From IMG/VR virus record IMGVR_UViG_3300037336_000053, positions 59,363-123,362 of that record: DNA of 64,000 nucleotides; one strand, given 5' to 3'. The notes beneath the pieces are model-generated. The model was not told where the DNA came from. It searched no databases and worked only from the letters and a program-made list of their open reading frames with translations. The DNA is from a virus. Below are positions 45,491-52,029 of the stretch, in pieces; the stretch's first letter is position 1, and every line of letters starts with the position of its first letter. A program made the translations under genes and the position numbers.

Positions 45491-45789
45491 TCCATTTCTT
45501 CTTTTACTTCAATACTTTCACTACCATCATATTCATTTATACGGAACAATGTACCTTCTGGAAGCCAAGCAATTTCCAAACTGTCCATGCCGCCTGTGTA
45601 CATATCTGGATACCAAAGAGTCATGTAAGTGTTCAACTTATCAAAGTCTCCTGTTTCAACACACTGTACTACCATAGGATCAAACAGCGCTTTGTTGCCA
45701 TAGTCGCCGTGGCCCCAAGAGCTCCAACCAGCGCCGAACCCTGGACTGTATAGTACAGCAACTTTTCCGTCTCTAATTACTTTGTCCAT
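45475..45789 (-). CDS. Conserved-looking phage hypothetical protein
   Basis: VAVLYSPGFGAGWSSW...EYDGSE pattern. Confidence 0.65.
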   Translation of the reverse strand: MDKVIRDGKVAVLYSPGFGAGWSSWGHGDYGNKALFDPMVVQCVETGDFDKLNTYMTLWYPDMYTGGMDSLEIAWLPEGTLFRINEYDGSESIEVKEEMDWMIA

Positions 45790-45790
45790 A

Positions 45791-46807
45791 TTAATTACCG
45801 CCTTTCAATAAGAACTTATTAGAAATTGCTTTGAACGAACATTGCATATCTAGAATCTTAAACACAAGTCCTTCTCGTTCACAACCAACCATTCCCATAA
45901 CTGACTTACCTTCTGCAGACATTAGCAGATCAGCAATGGTAGTTGACTCATCCATTGTGAGGGTTCCAAGAACAGGCACATGTTTAATATCAAACTCATC
46001 AACGAATGCTTTTCGTTCTGCAGGAGTAAAGTACTTGTTGGTATCAATATTGTAGATGTCAAACAAGAAAAAATCTTGTCCTTTGCTCTTATATGGATTA
46101 CCTTGAATACCTTCTCCAATCAGTTCACCTTGCAATGCAATATTACGATTAGCACGACGAAGTTTTAATTCTAGATCATTGGCAACTGCAACTTTCCACA
46201 GGCTGTTAGTTTCGCTTGGCTTGAGATCAAGATTACGTGAACAAACTCCAAACTCTCCATCACGCAAGTAAGCTGTCATTGACGCACCGTCTAGCTTTTC
46301 AGTAATTTCCCAAGCATGCTGTTCTTTAGCCCAGTATGCAAGTTCTTCCTTTAGATTCTGAATACGTTCTTGATCAGTCTTTTGAAGCCAACTTGGAAAC
46401 ATACCTTTAACTTCACCAGCAAGACATGCAGGAATAGGAGCTTCATACTTAGTGATACTAAGGATAGCAGAAACATCCATTCCTACTTCAAGACCAAGAA
46501 CACAAATACCGCCGATGTTTGCTGGCAGCAACAATCCTTGCGATAGTTGTCCACGCAGTCTAATAGTACGCAAGCGTTCGCCTGCAACACCGTCATACAC
46601 TCGCGGCTCGTTGCCTTTGCTGAGGAATGGTGCTAGTGCATGCGGGATCCATGAATCAATTTCACAGTAGACTGCATGGTCGCCAGTAGTATACTTATCG
46701 ATGGTGTCGACTACCCACCAACCATTCACCCGATATGCACAAATTTTATCAGCACCGTTGATAGGTTTAATTTCTTCAATTTTACGGATAGAAGCTAGAT
46801 TACGCAT
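45791..46807 (-). CDS. RNA ligase (Rnl2/DRB0094-like, N-terminal OB domain)
   Basis: EKLDG motif I, QGELIG, FFLFD, REGLV, KAISN. Confidence 0.88.
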   Translation of the reverse strand: MRNLASIRKIEEIKPINGADKICAYRVNGWWVVDTIDKYTTGDHAVYCEIDSWIPHALAPFLSKGNEPRVYDGVAGERLRTIRLRGQLSQGLLLPANIGGICVLGLEVGMDVSAILSITKYEAPIPACLAGEVKGMFPSWLQKTDQERIQNLKEELAYWAKEQHAWEITEKLDGASMTAYLRDGEFGVCSRNLDLKPSETNSLWKVAVANDLELKLRRANRNIALQGELIGEGIQGNPYKSKGQDFFLFDIYNIDTNKYFTPAERKAFVDEFDIKHVPVLGTLTMDESTTIADLLMSAEGKSVMGMVGCEREGLVFKILDMQCSFKAISNKFLLKGGN

Positions 46808-46833
46808 GGTATTCCTTTAAACATTATATTTAT

Positions 46834-46861
46834 ATTATAGCACCTTTTGTACTATTGTCAA
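46834..46861 (-). promoter_or_regulatory. sigma70 promoter for RNA ligase operon
   Basis: TTGACA-N16-TATAAT immediately after tRNA-Phe. Confidence 0.7.
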
Positions 46862-46871
46862 GACTAAAAAT

Positions 46872-46947
46872 TGGTGCTGCCTACAGGAATCGAACCTGTT
46901 TCACCGGGACTTCAATCCGGAGCTATAACCATATCAGCTAAAGCAGC
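46872..46947 (-). tRNA. tRNA-Phe(GAA)
   Basis: Cloverleaf, loop TT-GAA-GT, encoded CCA. Confidence 0.88.
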
Positions 46948-46953
46948 ATATAC

Positions 46954-47029
46954 TGGGGAGAAGTATGGGAATCGAACCCATATTAACGGAATCACAATCC
47001 GTGGTGTTAACCTTTACACTAACGACTCC
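46954..47029 (-). tRNA. tRNA-His(GTG)
   Basis: Loop TT-GTG-AT, G-1:C73, CCA. Confidence 0.9.
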
Positions 47030-47036
47030 ATAAAAC

Positions 47037-47113
47037 TGGTGCGCCTGGAGAGACTCGAACTCCCAACCTGCGGTTTCGAAGACCGACGCTCTAATCCATT
47101 GAGCTACAGGCGC
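47037..47113 (-). tRNA. tRNA-Arg(TCG)
   Basis: Loop CT-TCG-AA, CCA. Confidence 0.92.
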
Positions 47114-47114
47114 T

Positions 47115-47189
47115 TGGTGGTAATGACTGGACTTGAACCAGTAACAGCTTCCTTATGAGGGAAGTGGACTACCATTGTCCTACATTACC
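47115..47189 (-). tRNA. tRNA-Met(CAT), elongator-like (Ile2 not excluded)
   Basis: Loop CT-CAT-AA, acceptor GGTAATG/CATTACC, CCA. Confidence 0.85.
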
Positions 47190-47199
47190 ATACTAAAAC

Positions 47200-47276
47200 T
47201 GGAGTGCGTGACAAGACTTGAACTTGCATAAACGAGATTTGCAATCTCGGGCCTAACCATTCGGCTACACACGCAC
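47200..47276 (-). tRNA. tRNA-Cys(GCA)
   Basis: Loop TT-GCA-AA, U73, CCA; 5' end uncertain by 2 nt. Confidence 0.9.
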
Positions 47277-47283
47277 ATAAAAC

Positions 47284-47357
47284 TGGCAGAGGGTACAAGA
47301 ATCGAACTTGTGACAACGGAATCAAAATCCGCGGTTATACCATTTAACTAACCCCCA
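47284..47357 (-). tRNA. tRNA-Gln(TTG)
   Basis: Loop TT-TTG-AT, U1, CCA. Confidence 0.92.
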
Positions 47358-47361
47358 ACAA

Positions 47362-47435
47362 ACCATATATAAACGTTTTCATTCTGGCCGTTCCAGGGCC
47401 TGCGTTATACGTCTTTGAAAACGTTTATATATGGT
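47362..47435 (-). repeat. 20-bp perfect inverted repeat including the tRNA-Lys ACCA end
   Basis: ACCATATATAAACGTTTTCA / TGAAAACGTTTATATATGGT, 34-nt loop. Confidence 0.9.
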
Positions 47436-47505
47436 AGGACTGCTCGGTAACGATCCGAGTTCTACTGGTTAAAAGCCAGTTGCTTCACCTTAAAGCTTCA
47501 ATCCC
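47432..47505 (-). tRNA. tRNA-Lys(TTT), atypical A8/A54
   Basis: Loop CT-TTT-AA; T-loop ATCGTTA; CCA. Confidence 0.88.
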
Positions 47506-47533
47506 CTATCTTGCCACTCTTGTCACTATTCAT
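47498..47533 (-). CDS. 11-aa micro-ORF MNSDKSGKIGD overlapping the tRNA-Lys 5' end
   Basis: Strong SD AAAGGAG 7 nt before ATG; stop TGA inside the tRNA. Confidence 0.45.
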   Translation of the reverse strand: MNSDKSGKIGD

Positions 47534-47555
47534 GACAGATCTCCTTTAATTAACA

Positions 47556-47632
47556 TGGTACCCGGTGCAAGATTTGAACTTGCGACCCCAACCTTATCAA
47601 GATTGTGCTACTACCAACTGAGCTAACCGGGT
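47556..47632 (-). tRNA. tRNA-Ile(GAT)
   Basis: Loop TT-GAT-AA, CCA. Confidence 0.93.
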
Positions 47633-47637
47633 AAAAT

Positions 47638-47711
47638 TGGCATAGGTGCAGGGATTTGAACCCCGATCGACGGTTTTGGAGACCGCTGTGTTGCCATTAC
47701 ACTACACCCAT
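47638..47711 (-). tRNA. tRNA-Trp(CCA)
   Basis: Loop CT-CCA-AA, G73, CCA. Confidence 0.93.
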
Positions 47712-47733
47712 ATAAAACTTTTCACTTATCCAT

Positions 47734-47770
47734 AAAAAAACCCCTGCTTGTATTTCTACTAAGCAGGGGT
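47734..47770 (-). terminator. Intrinsic terminator (attenuator A)
   Basis: ACCCCTGCTT-11 nt-AAGCAGGGGT followed by a U tract, about 22 nt before tRNA-Trp. Confidence 0.9.
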
Positions 47771-47796
47771 GTATTAATCTTTAACTGACTGTTATG

Positions 47797-47868
47797 TCAA
47801 GATACACTCCTGCCTTCGCTAAACCAGCGAATGCAATGTTGTTTAATCTGTTTCATCATTGTAGTCAT
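47797..47868 (-). CDS. Leader peptide A, MTTMMKQIKQHCIRWFSEGRSVS
   Basis: Manual translation; sits between a consensus promoter and the terminator; 3' codons form an antiterminator strand. Confidence 0.8.
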   Translation of the reverse strand: MTTMMKQIKQHCIRWFSEGRSVS

Positions 47869-47902
47869 TTTTAAATCTCTTTTAATTTCGTTGTATGTGT
47901 TT

Positions 47903-47931
47903 ATTATACACAGTTATTTATCATTTGTCAA
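47903..47931 (-). promoter_or_regulatory. sigma70 consensus promoter of leader A / tRNA block A
   Basis: TTGACA-N17-TATAAT; spacer contains a GATAAATA late-type motif. Confidence 0.88.
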
Positions 47932-47949
47932 CCACTATTAACAATTTAG

Positions 47950-48262
47950 ATAGACTTTTTTAAATAAAAACGGAAGCGAAAAAGCAAGTAATGAACTGTG
48001 CAAAGTGCAGTCGAGATAGCCGTTAGCGTTTCTCACAAGCAAAATACAAAAATCAATATGCACAAGACTCGTATATTTCCAGTTTCAAAGTGCAAACGTT
48101 CTATTAACACTGGAGCATACAAGTACAGACACGTTTCAGGTGTGAGCCAGATTAGTTTATCGTTTAAACTTCAGACGAAGTTGTCAGTAACGACACTGGG
48201 GTCCATCCTCTCTCAATTTCTCTTCCGGGCAGCTTACGCTTCCAACGCATAGCCGCCAAAAC
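47950..48262 (-). ncRNA. Candidate structured RNA / long 3' UTR
   Basis: No minus-strand ORF; several hairpins (GGCGGCT/AGCTGCC, TCCAGT/ACTGGA) and repeated TTGC/TGCAC motifs. Confidence 0.35.
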
Positions 48263-48265
48263 TTT

Positions 48266-48832
48266 TTAAAGGATGTCTGCTTGCGTTAGAAACGACGCAG
48301 TAGTTTCATCCAATTTGATTTCTGCTTTTACATTTAGCTCTAGCAGTGAATCCTGTAATTTTTGTTTCTTACGTTTTAGTCCTGCAACTTCACGTTTGAA
48401 TTCATTGATTTCAGCAGTATCAAAGATGCCGGTATCAATTGTATCGAGTCGACCGTATAGCCGACTCTCGTCTTTGCTGTTGCGAACTTTGTCCAGCTTG
48501 CCTTCAATAACTGCATCACTTACACGAGCTGTCTTGGTTGCCAAACTGTTGACATGTTGAATGTTTTTCTCTAACATTGCAACTTCTGCCAGCATGTCAT
48601 TGATGCCTTGCGCTGCATTTACACTTGCAACTGCTTTGCGGATTTCAAACAATGCTCCCACTAGTTTGGTACGAGTCGTGTTGTTAGAAACAAAACGAGC
48701 ATGAACAGCATTGATTTGATCTTTGCTGTCTTCGTATTCGTTCAACGAAACACTGGCTTGAAAATCAAGTCCTTTGATTGCTTCATTGATTGATAGCTGT
48801 ATAGCATTTGCCTTACGTAGTGTGATTTGCAT
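48266..48832 (-). CDS. Hypothetical coiled-coil protein
   Basis: 188-aa ORF with SD and its own promoter. Confidence 0.75.
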   Translation of the reverse strand: MQITLRKANAIQLSINEAIKGLDFQASVSLNEYEDSKDQINAVHARFVSNNTTRTKLVGALFEIRKAVASVNAAQGINDMLAEVAMLEKNIQHVNSLATKTARVSDAVIEGKLDKVRNSKDESRLYGRLDTIDTGIFDTAEINEFKREVAGLKRKKQKLQDSLLELNVKAEIKLDETTASFLTQADIL

Positions 48833-48858
48833 TTTGATTCCTTTTACCTTATGTATTA

Positions 48859-48887
48859 ATTATAATGTCTTTTCTTGATCTTGTCAA
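48859..48887 (-). promoter_or_regulatory. sigma70 consensus promoter
   Basis: TTGACA-N17-TATAAT. Confidence 0.85.
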
Positions 48888-48899
48888 GCACTTTTTAAT

Positions 48900-48986
48900 T
48901 GGTGGAAGATGATGGTAACGCTCCACGTGCCTTGACTTCACTACCTTTAGGAACGGTTTTACAGACCGCCGTAGTGGGTATCTTCC
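48900..48986 (-). tRNA. Atypical tRNA-Tyr(GTA)-like RNA lacking a D arm
   Basis: Perfect 7-bp acceptor, A73, CCA, loop CT-GTA-AA; only 10 nt between acceptor and anticodon stems. Confidence 0.6.
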
Positions 48987-49012
48987 TTATTTCTTATAAT
49001 CCTATATAAACT

Positions 49013-49086
49013 TGGTACATCGTGACAGGATCGAACTGCCGTCTCTGCCGTGTAAAAGCAGGGCCCTACCATTAGACGAACGATGC
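49013..49086 (-). tRNA. tRNA-Val(TAC)
   Basis: Loop TT-TAC-AC, CCA. Confidence 0.92.
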
Positions 49087-49094
49087 ATTAATTG

Positions 49095-49185
49095 TGGCGG
49101 AAGGCTAGAGAGTCGAACTCTAAAGGCGCTATTAACGCTCGACGCATTTCAAGTGCGGTCCCATCGCCAATTGGGTTGGCCTTCC
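49095..49185 (-). tRNA. tRNA-Ser(TGA)
   Basis: Loop CT-TGA-AA, long variable arm, G73, CCA. Confidence 0.9.
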
Positions 49186-49206
49186 TAAGACAAACAAGAT
49201 ACTCTG

Positions 49207-49282
49207 AAGCGGGGGATGGATTTGAACCAACGATCTCTAGCTTATGAGACTAGTGAGGACGACCAGACTCCTCTACCCCGCA
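49207..49282 (-). tRNA. tRNA-Met(CAT), initiator-like scaffold, CCA not encoded
   Basis: TGCGGGG/CCCCGCT with 1:72 mismatch, loop CT-CAT-AA. Confidence 0.8.
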
Positions 49283-49312
49283 TCAGAATACCCTACTCGC
49301 AATAACTTATAC

Positions 49313-49524
49313 TTACCATTAGTTGTATTGTCTTGTTATGGACAACAATCGCCCTGTTGTCGTTTGCTTTTAACTTGGTAACTAGTATAGAAGCATCGGC
49401 CGATGCCAACTCTACTTTTGTTACTTCAAACTGGATATTCGATGCCTGCAGGACAGAGCGAACATTGCCAGTGCATTAGGCTAGTGGACACAGCCTTTTT
49501 CCAAAACAATACAACTAATGGTAA
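49313..49524 (-). repeat. 19-bp inverted repeat enclosing 174 nt, including the tRNA-Glu 3' end
   Basis: TTACCATTAGTTGTATTGT (49313-49331) / ACAATACAACTAATGGTAA (49506-49524). Confidence 0.88.
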
Positions 49525-49593
49525 CGCTACGGGGAGTCGAACCCCGCTCTTCAGGATGAAAACCTGATGACCTAACCGATAGTCGATAGCGTC
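49519..49593 (-). tRNA. tRNA-Glu(TTC)
   Basis: Loop TT-TTC-AT, CCA. Confidence 0.9.
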
Positions 49594-49603
49594 ATATTAA
49601 AAC

Positions 49604-49678
49604 TGGTGGAGGTTAAGGGGATCGAACCCTTAACTCTGCCTTGCAAAGGCAGCGTGTTCCCATTAGCACTAAACCCCC
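49604..49678 (-). tRNA. tRNA-Ala(TGC)
   Basis: Loop TT-TGC-AA, G3:U70, CCA. Confidence 0.95.
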
Positions 49679-49683
49679 AATTT

Positions 49684-49757
49684 TGGTCTCCGATGCAAGA
49701 ATCGAACTTGCGCTCCTTGGTCCCAAACCAAGAGTGATACCATTTCACCAATCGGAG
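49684..49757 (-). tRNA. tRNA-Pro(TGG)
   Basis: Loop TT-TGG-GA, CCA. Confidence 0.92.
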
Positions 49758-49985
49758 TTATCTAATCTTTCGAATATACTCTAAGCCAATTTCACCGTTT
49801 TGGACTTCAAGTAATGCTGAAATAGGAGCATTAAATTGAGTACCATCATCTTTGTATCTATGTTGCCTTGCAAGCTCTCTTGCTCTTTGCGAAGCAATAA
49901 CTACCATAGTAAACCTATTTCCGATGTTGTCAACAATTTTCTCGTTGTCAAGAAGTCCTATTCGGCTATGTGTCTTGTCATTCAT
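49758..49985 (-). CDS. rpoZ: RNA polymerase omega subunit homolog
   Basis: NRFTMVVIASQRAREL...ALLEVQNGEI matches the RpoZ pattern. Confidence 0.8.
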   Translation of the reverse strand: MNDKTHSRIGLLDNEKIVDNIGNRFTMVVIASQRARELARQHRYKDDGTQFNAPISALLEVQNGEIGLEYIRKIR

Positions 49986-50010
49986 ATGTTCCTTTTGTTG
50001 TTAAAAATAT

Positions 50011-50084
50011 TGGTGCCCCTTGACAGAATCGAACTGCCGTAGCCTGATTACAAAACAGGTGTAATACCATTATACTAAAGGGGC
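50011..50084 (-). tRNA. tRNA-Thr(TGT)
   Basis: Loop TT-TGT-AA, CCA. Confidence 0.92.
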
Positions 50085-50357
50085 GTTAATCTACTTATCT
50101 TCGTCTACTAAGCCCGTTTCCGGATTTGAACGTTTTGTTTCATACTGCTGCATCATCAATTCTTGTAACTCAGCAACATCGACTTCAGGTAATCGAGACC
50201 TCGTTTGATGTAATATGTTTCAATATGCAAACTCATTGTAGGTTGGATTTTGCAACCAACATGCAAGCCGAATATTGGCTCTGTCTTGTCTGTTAGACCA
50301 CTACGAGTTTTTGAGGTAATTACTCCCCAATCTGATTCAAGGTAAATTACTCCTTGC

Positions 50358-50447
50358 TACCATATAGAAACATCCTAAGTTATCGACTGTTCTTGCGAAC
50401 TCCCTGTGAATAACAATTGGGGGAAATAAAGATGTTTCTATATGGTA
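50358..50447 (-). repeat. 17-bp inverted repeat including the tRNA-Glu 3' end
   Basis: TACCATATAGAAACATC / GATGTTTCTATATGGTA, 56-nt loop. Confidence 0.88.
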
Positions 50448-50518
50448 CTCGGTAGGGGATTTGAACCCCTGTAGCCACCGTGAAAGGGTGATGTCCTAGA
50501 CCACTAGACGAACCGAGT
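50443..50518 (-). tRNA. tRNA-Glu(TTC)
   Basis: Loop CT-TTC-AC, CCA. Confidence 0.93.
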
Positions 50519-50627
50519 ACAGTACAATATTAAAGAACATTTACAGAGTTACGATCAACTCTTTTTTAACCTATACGTTTATATACAACATATTTTTCAA
50601 ATAAAGTACACTACTTTTTAATAATGT

Positions 50628-50668
50628 TGGTGAGTAGTTACGGACTCGAACTCTCAATCTTTTCGGCA
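50628..50668 (-). pseudogene. tRNA 3'-half remnant
   Basis: T-arm-like GAGAGTTCGAGTCC plus ACCA, no 5' half; shares GACTCGAACTCTCA with the adjacent tRNA-Leu. Confidence 0.55.
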
Positions 50669-50669
50669 T

Positions 50670-50746
50670 TGGTGCCCTGGGAGAGACTCGAACTCTCAGC
50701 TTACGGCTTCTAAGACCGCTGTGTTTACCAATTTCACCACCGGGGC
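50670..50746 (-). tRNA. tRNA-Leu(TAG) with short variable loop
   Basis: Loop CT-TAG-AA, 5-nt variable loop, A73, CCA. Confidence 0.85.
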
Positions 50747-50837
50747 ATTTTACTCTACTGGCACACTCGTGCTCGTCAAATGTCCGGTGAGCTAACCGGT
50801 TCCTTTACTATGTAGAGTCTTTGAGTGTGCTTTTATA

Positions 50838-50911
50838 TGGTGCCCCGTGACAGAATCGAACTGCCGACCGCTGATTACAAAACAGCAGTTATACCATTTA
50901 ACTAACGGGGC
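50838..50911 (-). tRNA. tRNA-Thr(TGT)
   Basis: Loop TT-TGT-AA, CCA. Confidence 0.92.
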
Positions 50912-50953
50912 CATATTTTACTTATCATACAGACTGTGCTGTATACTTAAAAC

Positions 50954-51027
50954 TGGAGCGGGATAGGAGAATCGAACTCCTGACATTAGATTGGAAATCT
51001 AAGGTAATACCATTTTACGAATCCCGC
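50954..51027 (-). tRNA. tRNA-Gly(TCC)
   Basis: Loop TT-TCC-AA, U73, CCA. Confidence 0.93.
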
Positions 51028-51034
51028 ATAAACT

Positions 51035-51109
51035 TGGCGGTCTCAAGGGGTAACGATCCCCTTCTTCGACAGTGACAGTGTCGTGTGCGTCCATGAACAC
51101 TTTGAGACC
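51035..51109 (-). tRNA. tRNA-Asp(GTC), atypical A8/A54
   Basis: Loop CT-GTC-AC, G73, T-loop ATCGTTA, CCA. Confidence 0.9.
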
Positions 51110-51116
51110 TAATTAT

Positions 51117-51200
51117 TGGTGGAGCGTAATGGAATCGAACCATTCGTGGCTTTCGCCGGAGGATTTACAGTCCCCTGCCACACCTTGTAGCATACACTCC
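51117..51200 (-). tRNA. tRNA-Tyr(GTA)
   Basis: Loop CT-GTA-AA, long variable arm, CCA. Confidence 0.9.
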
Positions 51201-51210
51201 ATCAAATTCT

Positions 51211-51289
51211 TGGCTCCACATCTGGGTGACGATCCCAGCTAACCACGGATTAACAGTCCGGCCCATGCACCACGCTCGGGTTCTGTGGA
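51211..51289 (-). tRNA. tRNA-Asn(GTT), atypical A8/A54
   Basis: Loop CT-GTT-AA, G73, T-loop ATCGTCA, CCA. Confidence 0.88.
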
Positions 51290-51300
51290 ATAAACTTTGC

Positions 51301-51469
51301 TTACAAATACACACTCACAGGAATTGAACCTGCCCACTGAACTTTGAGCCCAGCTGTAATCCGCTACATCTGCCTGGCCTAAGCATTTGTGTGTATGTGT
51401 AAGCAGAGTTTAGTGGTGTATGTTGGTGCATACATCACTCTACTTACAGTGTTAGCCTTGCGACTAACA
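51301..51469 (-). ncRNA. Structured RNA with a tRNA-like T arm
   Basis: Outer stem 51301-14/51389-402, T arm GCAGG-TTCAATT-CCTGT, 10-bp stem 51399-408/51438-47, GCAA-tetraloop hairpin 51450-69. Confidence 0.5.
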
Positions 51470-51522
51470 TATTGTATCTAAATTGTTAAAGAACGTGCAA
51501 GCATTGCTGCTTACTAGTGTTT

Positions 51523-51551
51523 AGTATAACATGTTACGATGAACATGTCAA
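51523..51551 (-). promoter_or_regulatory. sigma70 promoter with palindromic spacer
   Basis: TTGACA-N17-TATACT. Confidence 0.8.
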
Positions 51552-51609
51552 CTGTTATTTTTAATCTTCTTAGCAACTCTAAACTACTGTTCTTTGTTGC
51601 TATGTATTG

Positions 51610-51638
51610 ATTATAACAAGTTACGATGAACTTGTCAA
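51610..51638 (-). promoter_or_regulatory. sigma70 promoter with palindromic spacer
   Basis: TTGACA-N17-TATAAT. Confidence 0.82.
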
Positions 51639-51716
51639 CTAATTTCCTAACTTTTTTGTTGTATTTTTACAACACTTTTTAACCTATTGCCTGCTGTATT
51701 GCTACAGTATGTCACT

Positions 51717-51745
51717 AGTATATGCGAACTTTCTCACTCTGTCAA
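51717..51745 (-). promoter_or_regulatory. sigma70 promoter
   Basis: TTGACA-N17-TATACT. Confidence 0.78.
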
Positions 51746-51759
51746 CTGTTTTTTTGCCT

Positions 51760-51807
51760 TTATTGAACGTTTGCATGTATCCACTTCCAGTATTCTTCTG
51801 CTGTCAT
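51760..51807 (-). CDS. 15-aa micropeptide MTAEEYWKWIHANVQ
   Basis: SD GGAGG right after terminator B; paralog at 5895-5942. Confidence 0.7.
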   Translation of the reverse strand: MTAEEYWKWIHANVQ

Positions 51808-51820
51808 AGTGTGCCTCCAT

Positions 51821-51853
51821 AAAAAAAGCCCCTAACATTTCTGCTAAGGGCTT
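51821..51853 (-). terminator. Intrinsic terminator (attenuator B)
   Basis: AAGCCCTTAGC-AGAAAT-GTTAGGGGCTT plus U tract. Confidence 0.88.
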
Positions 51854-51877
51854 GTAAAATTTAGTAGTACGTTCTAC

Positions 51878-51964
51878 TTAACTTTGCAAACCCCTGCAGG
51901 TATCCGCACCCGGATTACTTGATCCTAGTGTTGAATATTCTACTGTTGTTAGCGTTAGTTTCAT
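51878..51964 (-). CDS. Leader peptide B, MKLTLTTVEYSTLGSSNPGADTCRGLQS
   Basis: Manual translation; AAAGGA upstream; last codons form an antiterminator strand. Confidence 0.75.
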   Translation of the reverse strand: MKLTLTTVEYSTLGSSNPGADTCRGLQS

Positions 51965-52029
51965 TGAACTTACTTTTCCTTTGTTATGCATTTATTTATC
52001 ATCTTAACAAAATATACGCATATAAATGG

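Follow-up and report, generated by a model that had tools for sequence, protein, structure and literature searches.

How does a phage that carries its own tRNA genes control their transcription? The question of why phages carry tRNAs dates back 50 years, and the regulation of these phage genes is almost unexplored. The question is raised here by a stretch of 64,000 nucleotides of viral DNA (the window), which forms the final 64 kb of the 123-kb IMG/VR record IMGVR_UViG_3300037336_000053 (positions 59,363 to 123,362 of that record; CheckV completeness of about 35%). The phage is uncultured, and the public runs that contain the window sequence are salt-lake metagenomes. On the minus strand, a promoter, a Shine-Dalgarno sequence, a short leader open reading frame (ORF) and an intrinsic terminator are followed in this order by nine tRNA genes (Table 1). 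From the sequence and from folding models, we consider it likely that this element is a ribosome-mediated leader-peptide attenuator which gates the nine-tRNA cluster and provides feedback on tRNA supply.

A preliminary description of the locus, made from the sequence alone, had named a consensus promoter, a 23-residue ORF, an intrinsic terminator and nine tRNAs, and all of these parts were confirmed. Transcription is expected to start near position 47896. The terminator hairpin is composed of a 9-bp G+C-rich stem, a 1x1 internal loop, three further pairs and a GAAA loop; a pattern scanner with a loop limit of 8 did not call it but folding did. The first gene, tRNA-Trp, lies 22 nt past the terminator in the window and the order of the tRNAs, with their anticodons, is Trp(CCA), Ile(GAU), Lys(UUU), Gln(UUG), Cys(GCA), Met(CAU), Arg(UCG), His(GUG) and Phe(GAA). 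A promoter scan of the window identified no strong promoter between the terminator and tRNA-Trp or within the nine-tRNA cluster, and therefore the nine tRNAs would be made solely by transcription that passes the terminator.

Table 1. Features of the two leaders and the nine-tRNA cluster, in window coordinates
Feature	Position	Strand	Remarks
Sigma-70-type promoter	47903..47931	-	TTGACA 47931-47926, 17-nt spacer, TATAAT 47908-47903; 12/12 consensus match (promoter scan)
Shine-Dalgarno-like AAGAG	47877..47881	-	ATG 8 nt further on; read from sequence
Leader ORF	47797..47868	-	23 codons (23 aa) and TGA stop
List codons 4-16	47821..47859	-	Only M, K, Q, I, H, C, R, W, F; all nine present
Hairpin P1	47815..47831	-	TTCGCT, 5-nt loop, AGCGAA; -6.1 kcal/mol alone
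Region 2 (antiterminator 5' arm)	47802..47814	-	Within codons 19-23; partner 47774-47762
Region 3 (antiterminator 3' arm)	47762..47774	-	Overlaps 5' arm of terminator
Intrinsic terminator	47734..47769	-	Stem 47769-47761/47749-47741, U7 47740-47734; -14.9 kcal/mol
Nine tRNA genes	46872..47711	-	ARAGORN and Rfam (tRNA scores 49-70 bits)
Attenuator B (second leader and terminator)	51821..51964	-	Own list and look-alike terminator

The list codons had been described as naming only, and all of, the amino acids of the nine downstream tRNAs, and this agrees with the tRNA set that was identified by ARAGORN and Rfam. Every maximal run of the nine residues was scored in the six frames of the 123-kb record, where the leader was found to be the sole run holding all nine amino acids. 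With the six-frame residue frequencies, the expected number of such runs is 0.03 per genome and about 2.5e-5 per 200-nt leader region in three frames, the latter being near the naive value of about 3e-5 that had been given beforehand. The regulatory codons were found to be cognate to the supplied tRNAs, the caveat being the CGC codon that faces a UCG anticodon.

The list pattern was observed a second time. Another small ORF (51964-51878, minus strand) is followed by a look-alike terminator, and its 20-residue run holds exactly the eleven other amino acids. This second leader is an independent replicate of the list pattern within the same window. The list part of attenuator B is kept in four related loci (L003, L007, L029 and L066), with the tail frameshifted by a 1-nt indel.

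Searches with megablast and blastn against 50,697 phage records retrieved no relative and nothing beyond scattered matches to tRNAs. IMG/VR and metagenome contigs yielded about 30 loci in which a leader could be recognised; these fall into six leader variants and are referred to here as clade 1. Of the 52 metagenome pattern matches, about 20 showed neither a leader ORF nor a tRNA downstream and were dropped as chance matches. The -35 element is invariant and the -10 element near-consensus in all 14 distinct clade-1 relatives, and an AAAGAGA Shine-Dalgarno sequence is kept in every clade-1 leader. The frame of the ORF is open in about 20 distinct variants, where indels in the list part are in frame and the position of the stop is kept. 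A leader ORF that is not conserved had been named in advance as an observation that would count against attenuation; the start, Shine-Dalgarno sequence, frame and stop position were instead found to be kept in two clades.

The content of the list was observed to follow the tRNA genes downstream. As an example, the leader of L002 and L007 differs from that of the window at no fewer than seven list positions (at least 7) and has one extra codon, and it again holds all nine amino acids and only those nine; the same nine tRNAs are found downstream, and the promoter, 5' untranslated region and hairpin are nearly identical to those of the window. Over all clade-1 variants, 12 of the 13 amino-acid replacements stay within the tRNA set of the locus. 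For random single-base changes, a fraction of 0.45-0.5 is expected to stay in the set, which gives P of about 5e-4 to 2e-3. The sole replacement out of the set is a Lys to Thr change of the single Lys codon, in L031 and L035, which have lost tRNA-Lys.

A further example is tyrosine. In many relatives the codon that reads CAT (His) in the window is TAT, and among the TAT loci with a visible Ile-Lys interval a tRNA-Tyr(GUA), either canonical or of the unusual form described below, was found there in all but L033. L032 and L066 have the same gap as L033 and show ATT at that codon, two base changes on from TAT, which would be the next step after the loss of tRNA-Tyr. None of the leaders without a Tyr codon has tRNA-Tyr in its Trp-led cluster. 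In the window and in L066, tRNA-Tyr is located in the other block, whose own leader holds a Tyr codon. The comparison of relatives that had been suggested therefore shows leader codon content following the downstream tRNA set, with exceptions (L033, L028, L077, L031 and L035) that are weighed below.

Some features of these loci were noted on their own account. In seven of them (L029, L046, L049, L058, L062, L068 and L078), the tRNA-Tyr(GUA)-like gene between tRNA-Ile and tRNA-Lys is 85 nt long and has a normal acceptor stem and anticodon arm (loop CUGUAAA), together with a nonstandard T-loop (AGCGUAA) and D region; ARAGORN misses it. L007-L010 and L044 have a 5' fragment of tRNA-Trp followed by a different Trp gene, and a 772-nt insert before tRNA-Ile, with the leader unchanged. 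The leader, the 188-aa gene upstream of it and eight of the nine tRNAs are absent from L003 and L004, where tRNA-Phe stands alone before an RNA ligase gene and tRNA-Trp is found in the other block. With the 188-aa neighbour as the query, only distant homologues were retrieved, none of them with nearby tRNAs.

A second clade was reached by a neighbour-gene search with a 193-aa gene, in which the leader was not part of the query. This search gave 80 loci, most of them without tRNAs and a few pointing to clade 2, and a pattern that was made from the clade-2 leader tail then gave 23 contigs with 13 distinct leader/cluster pairs. The layout in clade 2 is a promoter, a short ORF (GTG start after AAGGAAT), a terminator and tRNA-Trp. 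The Trp-led clusters hold Pro(UGG), Ser(UGA), Gln and Cys, and in some cases Lys, Ile, Arg or a CAU tRNA as well; examples are W-P-S-C and W-K-P-S-Q-C. Leaders of clade 2, unlike those of clade 1, have a high content of Q, S, C, W and P. In the sensing part, Ser is encoded by TCA or TCG in all 34 cases and Pro by CCA or CCG in 19 of 20; the UGA and UGG anticodons, respectively, read these codons. Furthermore, ATA-ATA was observed in the clade-2 leaders of loci with tRNA-Ile(UAU) or a CAU tRNA. The stop codon has the same position in both clades, being TGA in clade 1 and TAA in clade 2. A cluster of W and C only keeps the full leader. In a more distant relative (L109 and L111, about 12020-12065), a Trp-Cys pair is located directly under a TTGACA-17-TATATA promoter with no leader or terminator, so that the design does not extend to every member of the wider family.

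The switch involves region 3, which can pair either with region 2, to form the antiterminator (2:3), or with region 4, to form the terminator (3:4). It had been proposed that the last codons of the leader pair with a segment overlapping the terminator 5' arm, giving a mutually exclusive antiterminator, and that both conformers should be folded. Both the antiterminator and the terminator were obtained, the former as the minimum-energy fold once the terminator 3' arm was omitted, and the co-variation agrees with the folds. The 2:3 antiterminator also folds in L002, where both arms differ in sequence, and in clade 2. In an alignment of 14 distinct clade-1 leaders (A3), 98% of the antiterminator cells are paired and three of its pairs carry a change in each partner, as do two pairs of the terminator; in slid registers, pairing falls to 36-58%. 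One change involves all three strands, with U to C at column 147 (region 3) accompanied by A to G at column 94 (region 2) and A to G at column 167 (region 4), and G-U intermediates of this change are present in other loci. Such a three-way change would be expected if region 3 has to pair with regions 2 and 4 in turn.

Minimum-energy folds of the growing transcript gave the 1:2 pairing first, 2:3 when region 3 is completed, and 1:2 together with 3:4 when region 4 is completed. The hairpin P1 had been put forward as the 1:2 protector. It was found to be the tip of the protector, but the hairpin alone does not cover the antiterminator arm in the folds; the protector is a longer pairing of the front half of the ORF with the tail (47850-47800, -15.1 kcal/mol). 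It is possible that P1 is also a pause hairpin. At the decision point, the ribosome-free leader of the Y-type relatives folds preferentially into the 1:2 protector (-31 to -32 kcal/mol); once a ribosome is modelled on codon 10, the fold becomes 2:3. The automatic antiterminator detector returned zero for L028 and L031, whose ribosome-free fold is also 1:2, with 2:3 emerging when a ribosome is placed on codon 10.

The effect of ribosome position was modelled with a 28-nt mask that was moved along the window leader. When the full leader is folded at equilibrium under ribosome masks, the terminator is retained in every case, which makes that fold uninformative; the test used a transcript cut before region 4. 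With the A site at codons 2-15, 10-11 of the 11 antiterminator pairs form in the model, falling to 7 at codon 16, 5 at codon 17 and 0 at codons 18-24, and the boundaries are similar in four other variants. The end of the list (codon 16) coincides with the point where a modelled stall ceases to favour the antiterminator, and the unlisted tail residues (Ser, Glu, Gly, Arg, Ser, Val, Ser) occupy the stretch in which a ribosome would promote termination.

The mechanism that we propose would begin with the host RNA polymerase initiating at the consensus promoter and a ribosome translating the 23-codon leader. A fast ribosome at the tail or stop would cover region 2, regions 3 and 4 would form the terminator, and transcription would end before tRNA-Trp. 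A ribosome that is slowed on any of codons 4-16 would open 1:2 and free region 2, so that the 2:3 antiterminator could form and the nine tRNAs could be transcribed. The new tRNAs would then speed decoding of the same codons, a negative feedback that would match the tRNA supply of the phage to decoding demand. We infer from this arrangement the translation of the leader, the direction from stall to read-through and the physiological trigger. The trp/his/thr-type attenuation geometry of the preliminary description holds in silico and is reinforced by the relatives, the compensatory changes and the footprint model. The defining features of leader-peptide attenuators that can be tested from sequence are present, with a less clear case for the protector, which is strong in the Y-type relatives and weaker than 2:3 in the window variant.

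On the sequence and the models, the tRNAs are probably made mainly when ribosomes read the listed codons slowly. It had been suggested that they are transcribed only when one of them fails, which is too strong, since with one or two codons for each amino acid the predicted response is graded and follows decoding speed as a whole. The modelled element should respond best to a general slowing on the listed codons. Amino-acid starvation, which extra tRNA cannot remedy, seems to us a less likely trigger than the loss or cleavage of host tRNAs in the course of infection. The presence of an RNA ligase gene directly after the array fits with a phage that meets damaged tRNAs. Logan contigs that are about 90% identical to the window and span the leader, the terminator and tRNA-Trp were found in three marine metatranscriptome runs from two studies. 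These contigs were discounted as evidence since neither transcript ends nor strand are shown by them and carried-over DNA is possible.

Several observations weigh against this reading. Three strong promoters (51745, 51638 and 51551) are located between terminator B and the block B tRNAs; because of them block B is not dependent on read-through alone, and attenuation is not the sole control of that block. Transcripts of the upstream 188-aa gene may also enter the leader. The relatives were retrieved with the conserved hairpin or the tail as the query and are mutually related, and the invariance of P1 among them carries no weight because P1 belonged to the search pattern. Some leaders keep codons for tRNAs that their clusters lack. 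L033 has a clean deletion of tRNA-Tyr yet retains TAT; L028 and L077, with the array Trp-Ile-Tyr-Lys-Gln-Cys-Met-Phe, lack the Arg and His tRNAs, whose codons are still in the leader; and in L031 and L035 the codons for Ile, Gln, His and Arg persist as exceptions to the co-variation. Shuffling of the tRNA sets among leaders gave p = 0.008 for clade 1 (Jaccard), p = 0.002 for clade 2 and less than 5e-5 for the pooled set, all with kinship ignored. The fraction of sensing residues that are in the set is 0.42 in clade 2, which is looser than in clade 1.

Points of the same kind concern the codons and the fold of the window itself. The Arg codon CGC is a nonstandard match to the window tRNA-Arg(UCG), fitting the ACG anticodon of some relatives, and the CAU tRNA could be either Met or Ile2. 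Each amino acid is listed by just one or two codons. Classical attenuators have runs of regulatory codons, and the response of the element to any single tRNA may be weak given one or two codons each. Modelling has tied the sensitivity of attenuators to the number of regulatory codons (PMC1183508). Furthermore, the antiterminator of the window variant (-18.0 kcal/mol) is more stable than its 1:2 protector (-15.1 kcal/mol), and termination without translation in this variant therefore rests on folding kinetics.

The alternatives differ in what they make of the list and of the terminator. The terminator might be constitutive or leaky and the ORF incidental, the match to the tRNA set being the product of chance and shared ancestry. 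All relatives do share one ancestor and several loci retain codons for lost tRNAs. We nevertheless find this explanation highly improbable, given a chance of about 2.5e-5 at this place and an independent second leader in the window that matches the complementary tRNA block. Against an incidental ORF there are also the replacements, which stay in the set, the co-occurrence of the Tyr codon with tRNA-Tyr, the choice of UCA/UCG and CCA/CCG codons, which agrees with the anticodons supplied, and the conservation of frame, start and stop across two clades. Leader peptides that act in trans are known, peTrpL being one (PMC7298713), and the ORF could likewise encode a small trans-acting peptide with a terminator that merely ends its transcript. 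The order of the list residues is however scrambled among variants while their composition is kept, in L028 and L002 the tail has undergone a frameshift or replacement, and the nine tRNA genes would be left without a promoter of their own; hardly any weight can be given to a trans-acting product.

Two other explanations were weighed. Direct sensing of tRNA without a ribosome, where the in-frame codons would be specifiers that pair with anticodons, draws on the T-box precedent of termination controlled by tRNA identity and on the match of the codons to the anticodons. We judge it very unlikely, since an Rfam scan of window positions 45500-53000 (E up to 1) gave no T-box match and no other family for this element, no Stem I or T-box sequence is visible, and thirteen adjacent specifiers would be without precedent. 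The listed codons are moreover contiguous in one frame, preceded by a Shine-Dalgarno sequence and a start and followed by a position-conserved stop. It is somewhat less implausible, although still unlikely, that the list is translated and that the output is the processing or stability of the pre-tRNA, or that the polarity is reversed and ribosome-polymerase coupling suppresses the terminator in a pyrBI-like manner. Because tRNA-Trp begins 1-25 nt past the U-run, the hairpin could be a 5' processing or stability element, and the equilibrium fold of the full leader always holds the terminator. A ribosome at the stop codon reaches about 13 nt downstream, however, and cannot melt the terminator stem directly because its footprint ends about 15 nt short of the stem. 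Compensatory changes preserve the 2:3 helix that overlaps the terminator arm; a signal for processing alone would have no need of them, and a positive feedback on tRNA supply has no evident use. Ribosome-mediated attenuation with negative feedback is thus the reading that we prefer.

Other features of the array were recorded. ARAGORN detected 21 tRNAs in the 123-kb record, all in one array. A long-arm tRNA (49099-49185, minus strand) with the anticodon loop CUUGAAA (Ser, UGA) was found only with the Rfam tRNA-Sec model (39.9 bits), and an Asn(GUU)-like tRNA at about 51211-51289 (minus strand) was called only under relaxed ARAGORN settings; with these two genes included, the array spans all 20 amino acids. 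A perfect inverted repeat of about 18 bp (47358-47431, minus strand) fills the 75-nt spacer between tRNA-Lys and tRNA-Gln and takes in the 3' end of tRNA-Lys. A short ORF of 15 codons (51760-51807, minus strand) begins directly after terminator B; its Shine-Dalgarno sequence, GGAGG, is strong, and the ORF is kept in L003 and L007. A boxA-like 13-mer (51483-51495, minus strand) sits about 30 nt past the -10 element of the 51551 promoter; it has 2 mismatches to the Escherichia coli rrn boxA, and it was set aside as the window has 8 such matches against 3.9 expected, which is within chance. The RNA ligase gene (45791-46807, minus strand), which directly follows tRNA-Phe, has its own consensus promoter (46861-46834), and its product shows 52% identity to the ligases of Limnohabitans phage DC31 and Synechococcus phage S-CREM1.

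If the proposed mechanism is correct, a phage would measure and correct its own tRNA supply, and leader-peptide attenuation would be extended from amino-acid biosynthesis to the tRNA pool. The element would also be a compact natural sensor of decoding speed for chosen codons, and as such a tool for synthetic biology and a reporter of tRNA-targeting immunity. The comparative series, in which the Tyr codon follows tRNA-Tyr between clusters and a second clade lists Pro and Ser, renders the idea directly testable. There is perhaps an even chance of a broader rule, by which large phages of several lineages would have each tRNA block gated by a checklist leader that measures the decoding speed of its own codons. 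Such leaders would give a block-by-block homeostatic supply and act as a sensor of host tRNA loss (for example by tRNA-cleaving defences), and selection would rewrite the checklist when a tRNA gene moves from one block to another.

A full-text literature search found no publication on leader-peptide control of tRNA genes, in phages or elsewhere, which is consistent with the earlier remark that no multi-amino-acid attenuator of phage tRNA genes has been described. To our knowledge, no leader ORF or attenuator is known for the tRNA clusters of phages T4 and T5, and none was found in the same search. The likeness to these clusters is that tRNA arrays are transcribed by the host polymerase from early promoters (for context, PMC10264068). 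T-box riboswitches also read tRNA status through a competition between antiterminator and terminator, but they need no ribosome and use one specifier codon together with the conserved Stem I and T-box motifs (PMC2879506). The phage element, by comparison, has an ORF with a start, a Shine-Dalgarno sequence and a stop, and no Rfam match.

Multivalent attenuators include the thr leader (Thr/Ile) and the ilvGMEDA and ilvBN leaders (Ile/Leu/Val). They resemble the phage element in that a single leader senses more than one amino acid, but the amino acids sensed number two or three, are related and are represented by many repeated codons, whereas the nine amino acids here are unrelated and equal the list of downstream genes. 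The closest likeness is to trpL, hisL, pheL and leuL, which share the promoter-proximal short ORF with regulatory codons matching what the operon supplies, the alternative 1:2, 2:3 and 3:4 pairings with an intrinsic terminator before the first gene, and a stop codon placed so that a terminating ribosome covers region 2 (PMC1183508). The phage element differs from them in controlling tRNA genes rather than biosynthetic enzymes, in listing nine or ten amino acids by one or two codons each rather than one amino acid by a run, and in having products that would feed back directly on the decoding of the leader. The class of the mechanism is that of the classical leader-peptide attenuator, and what is new is the phage tRNA targets and the list of nine amino acids.

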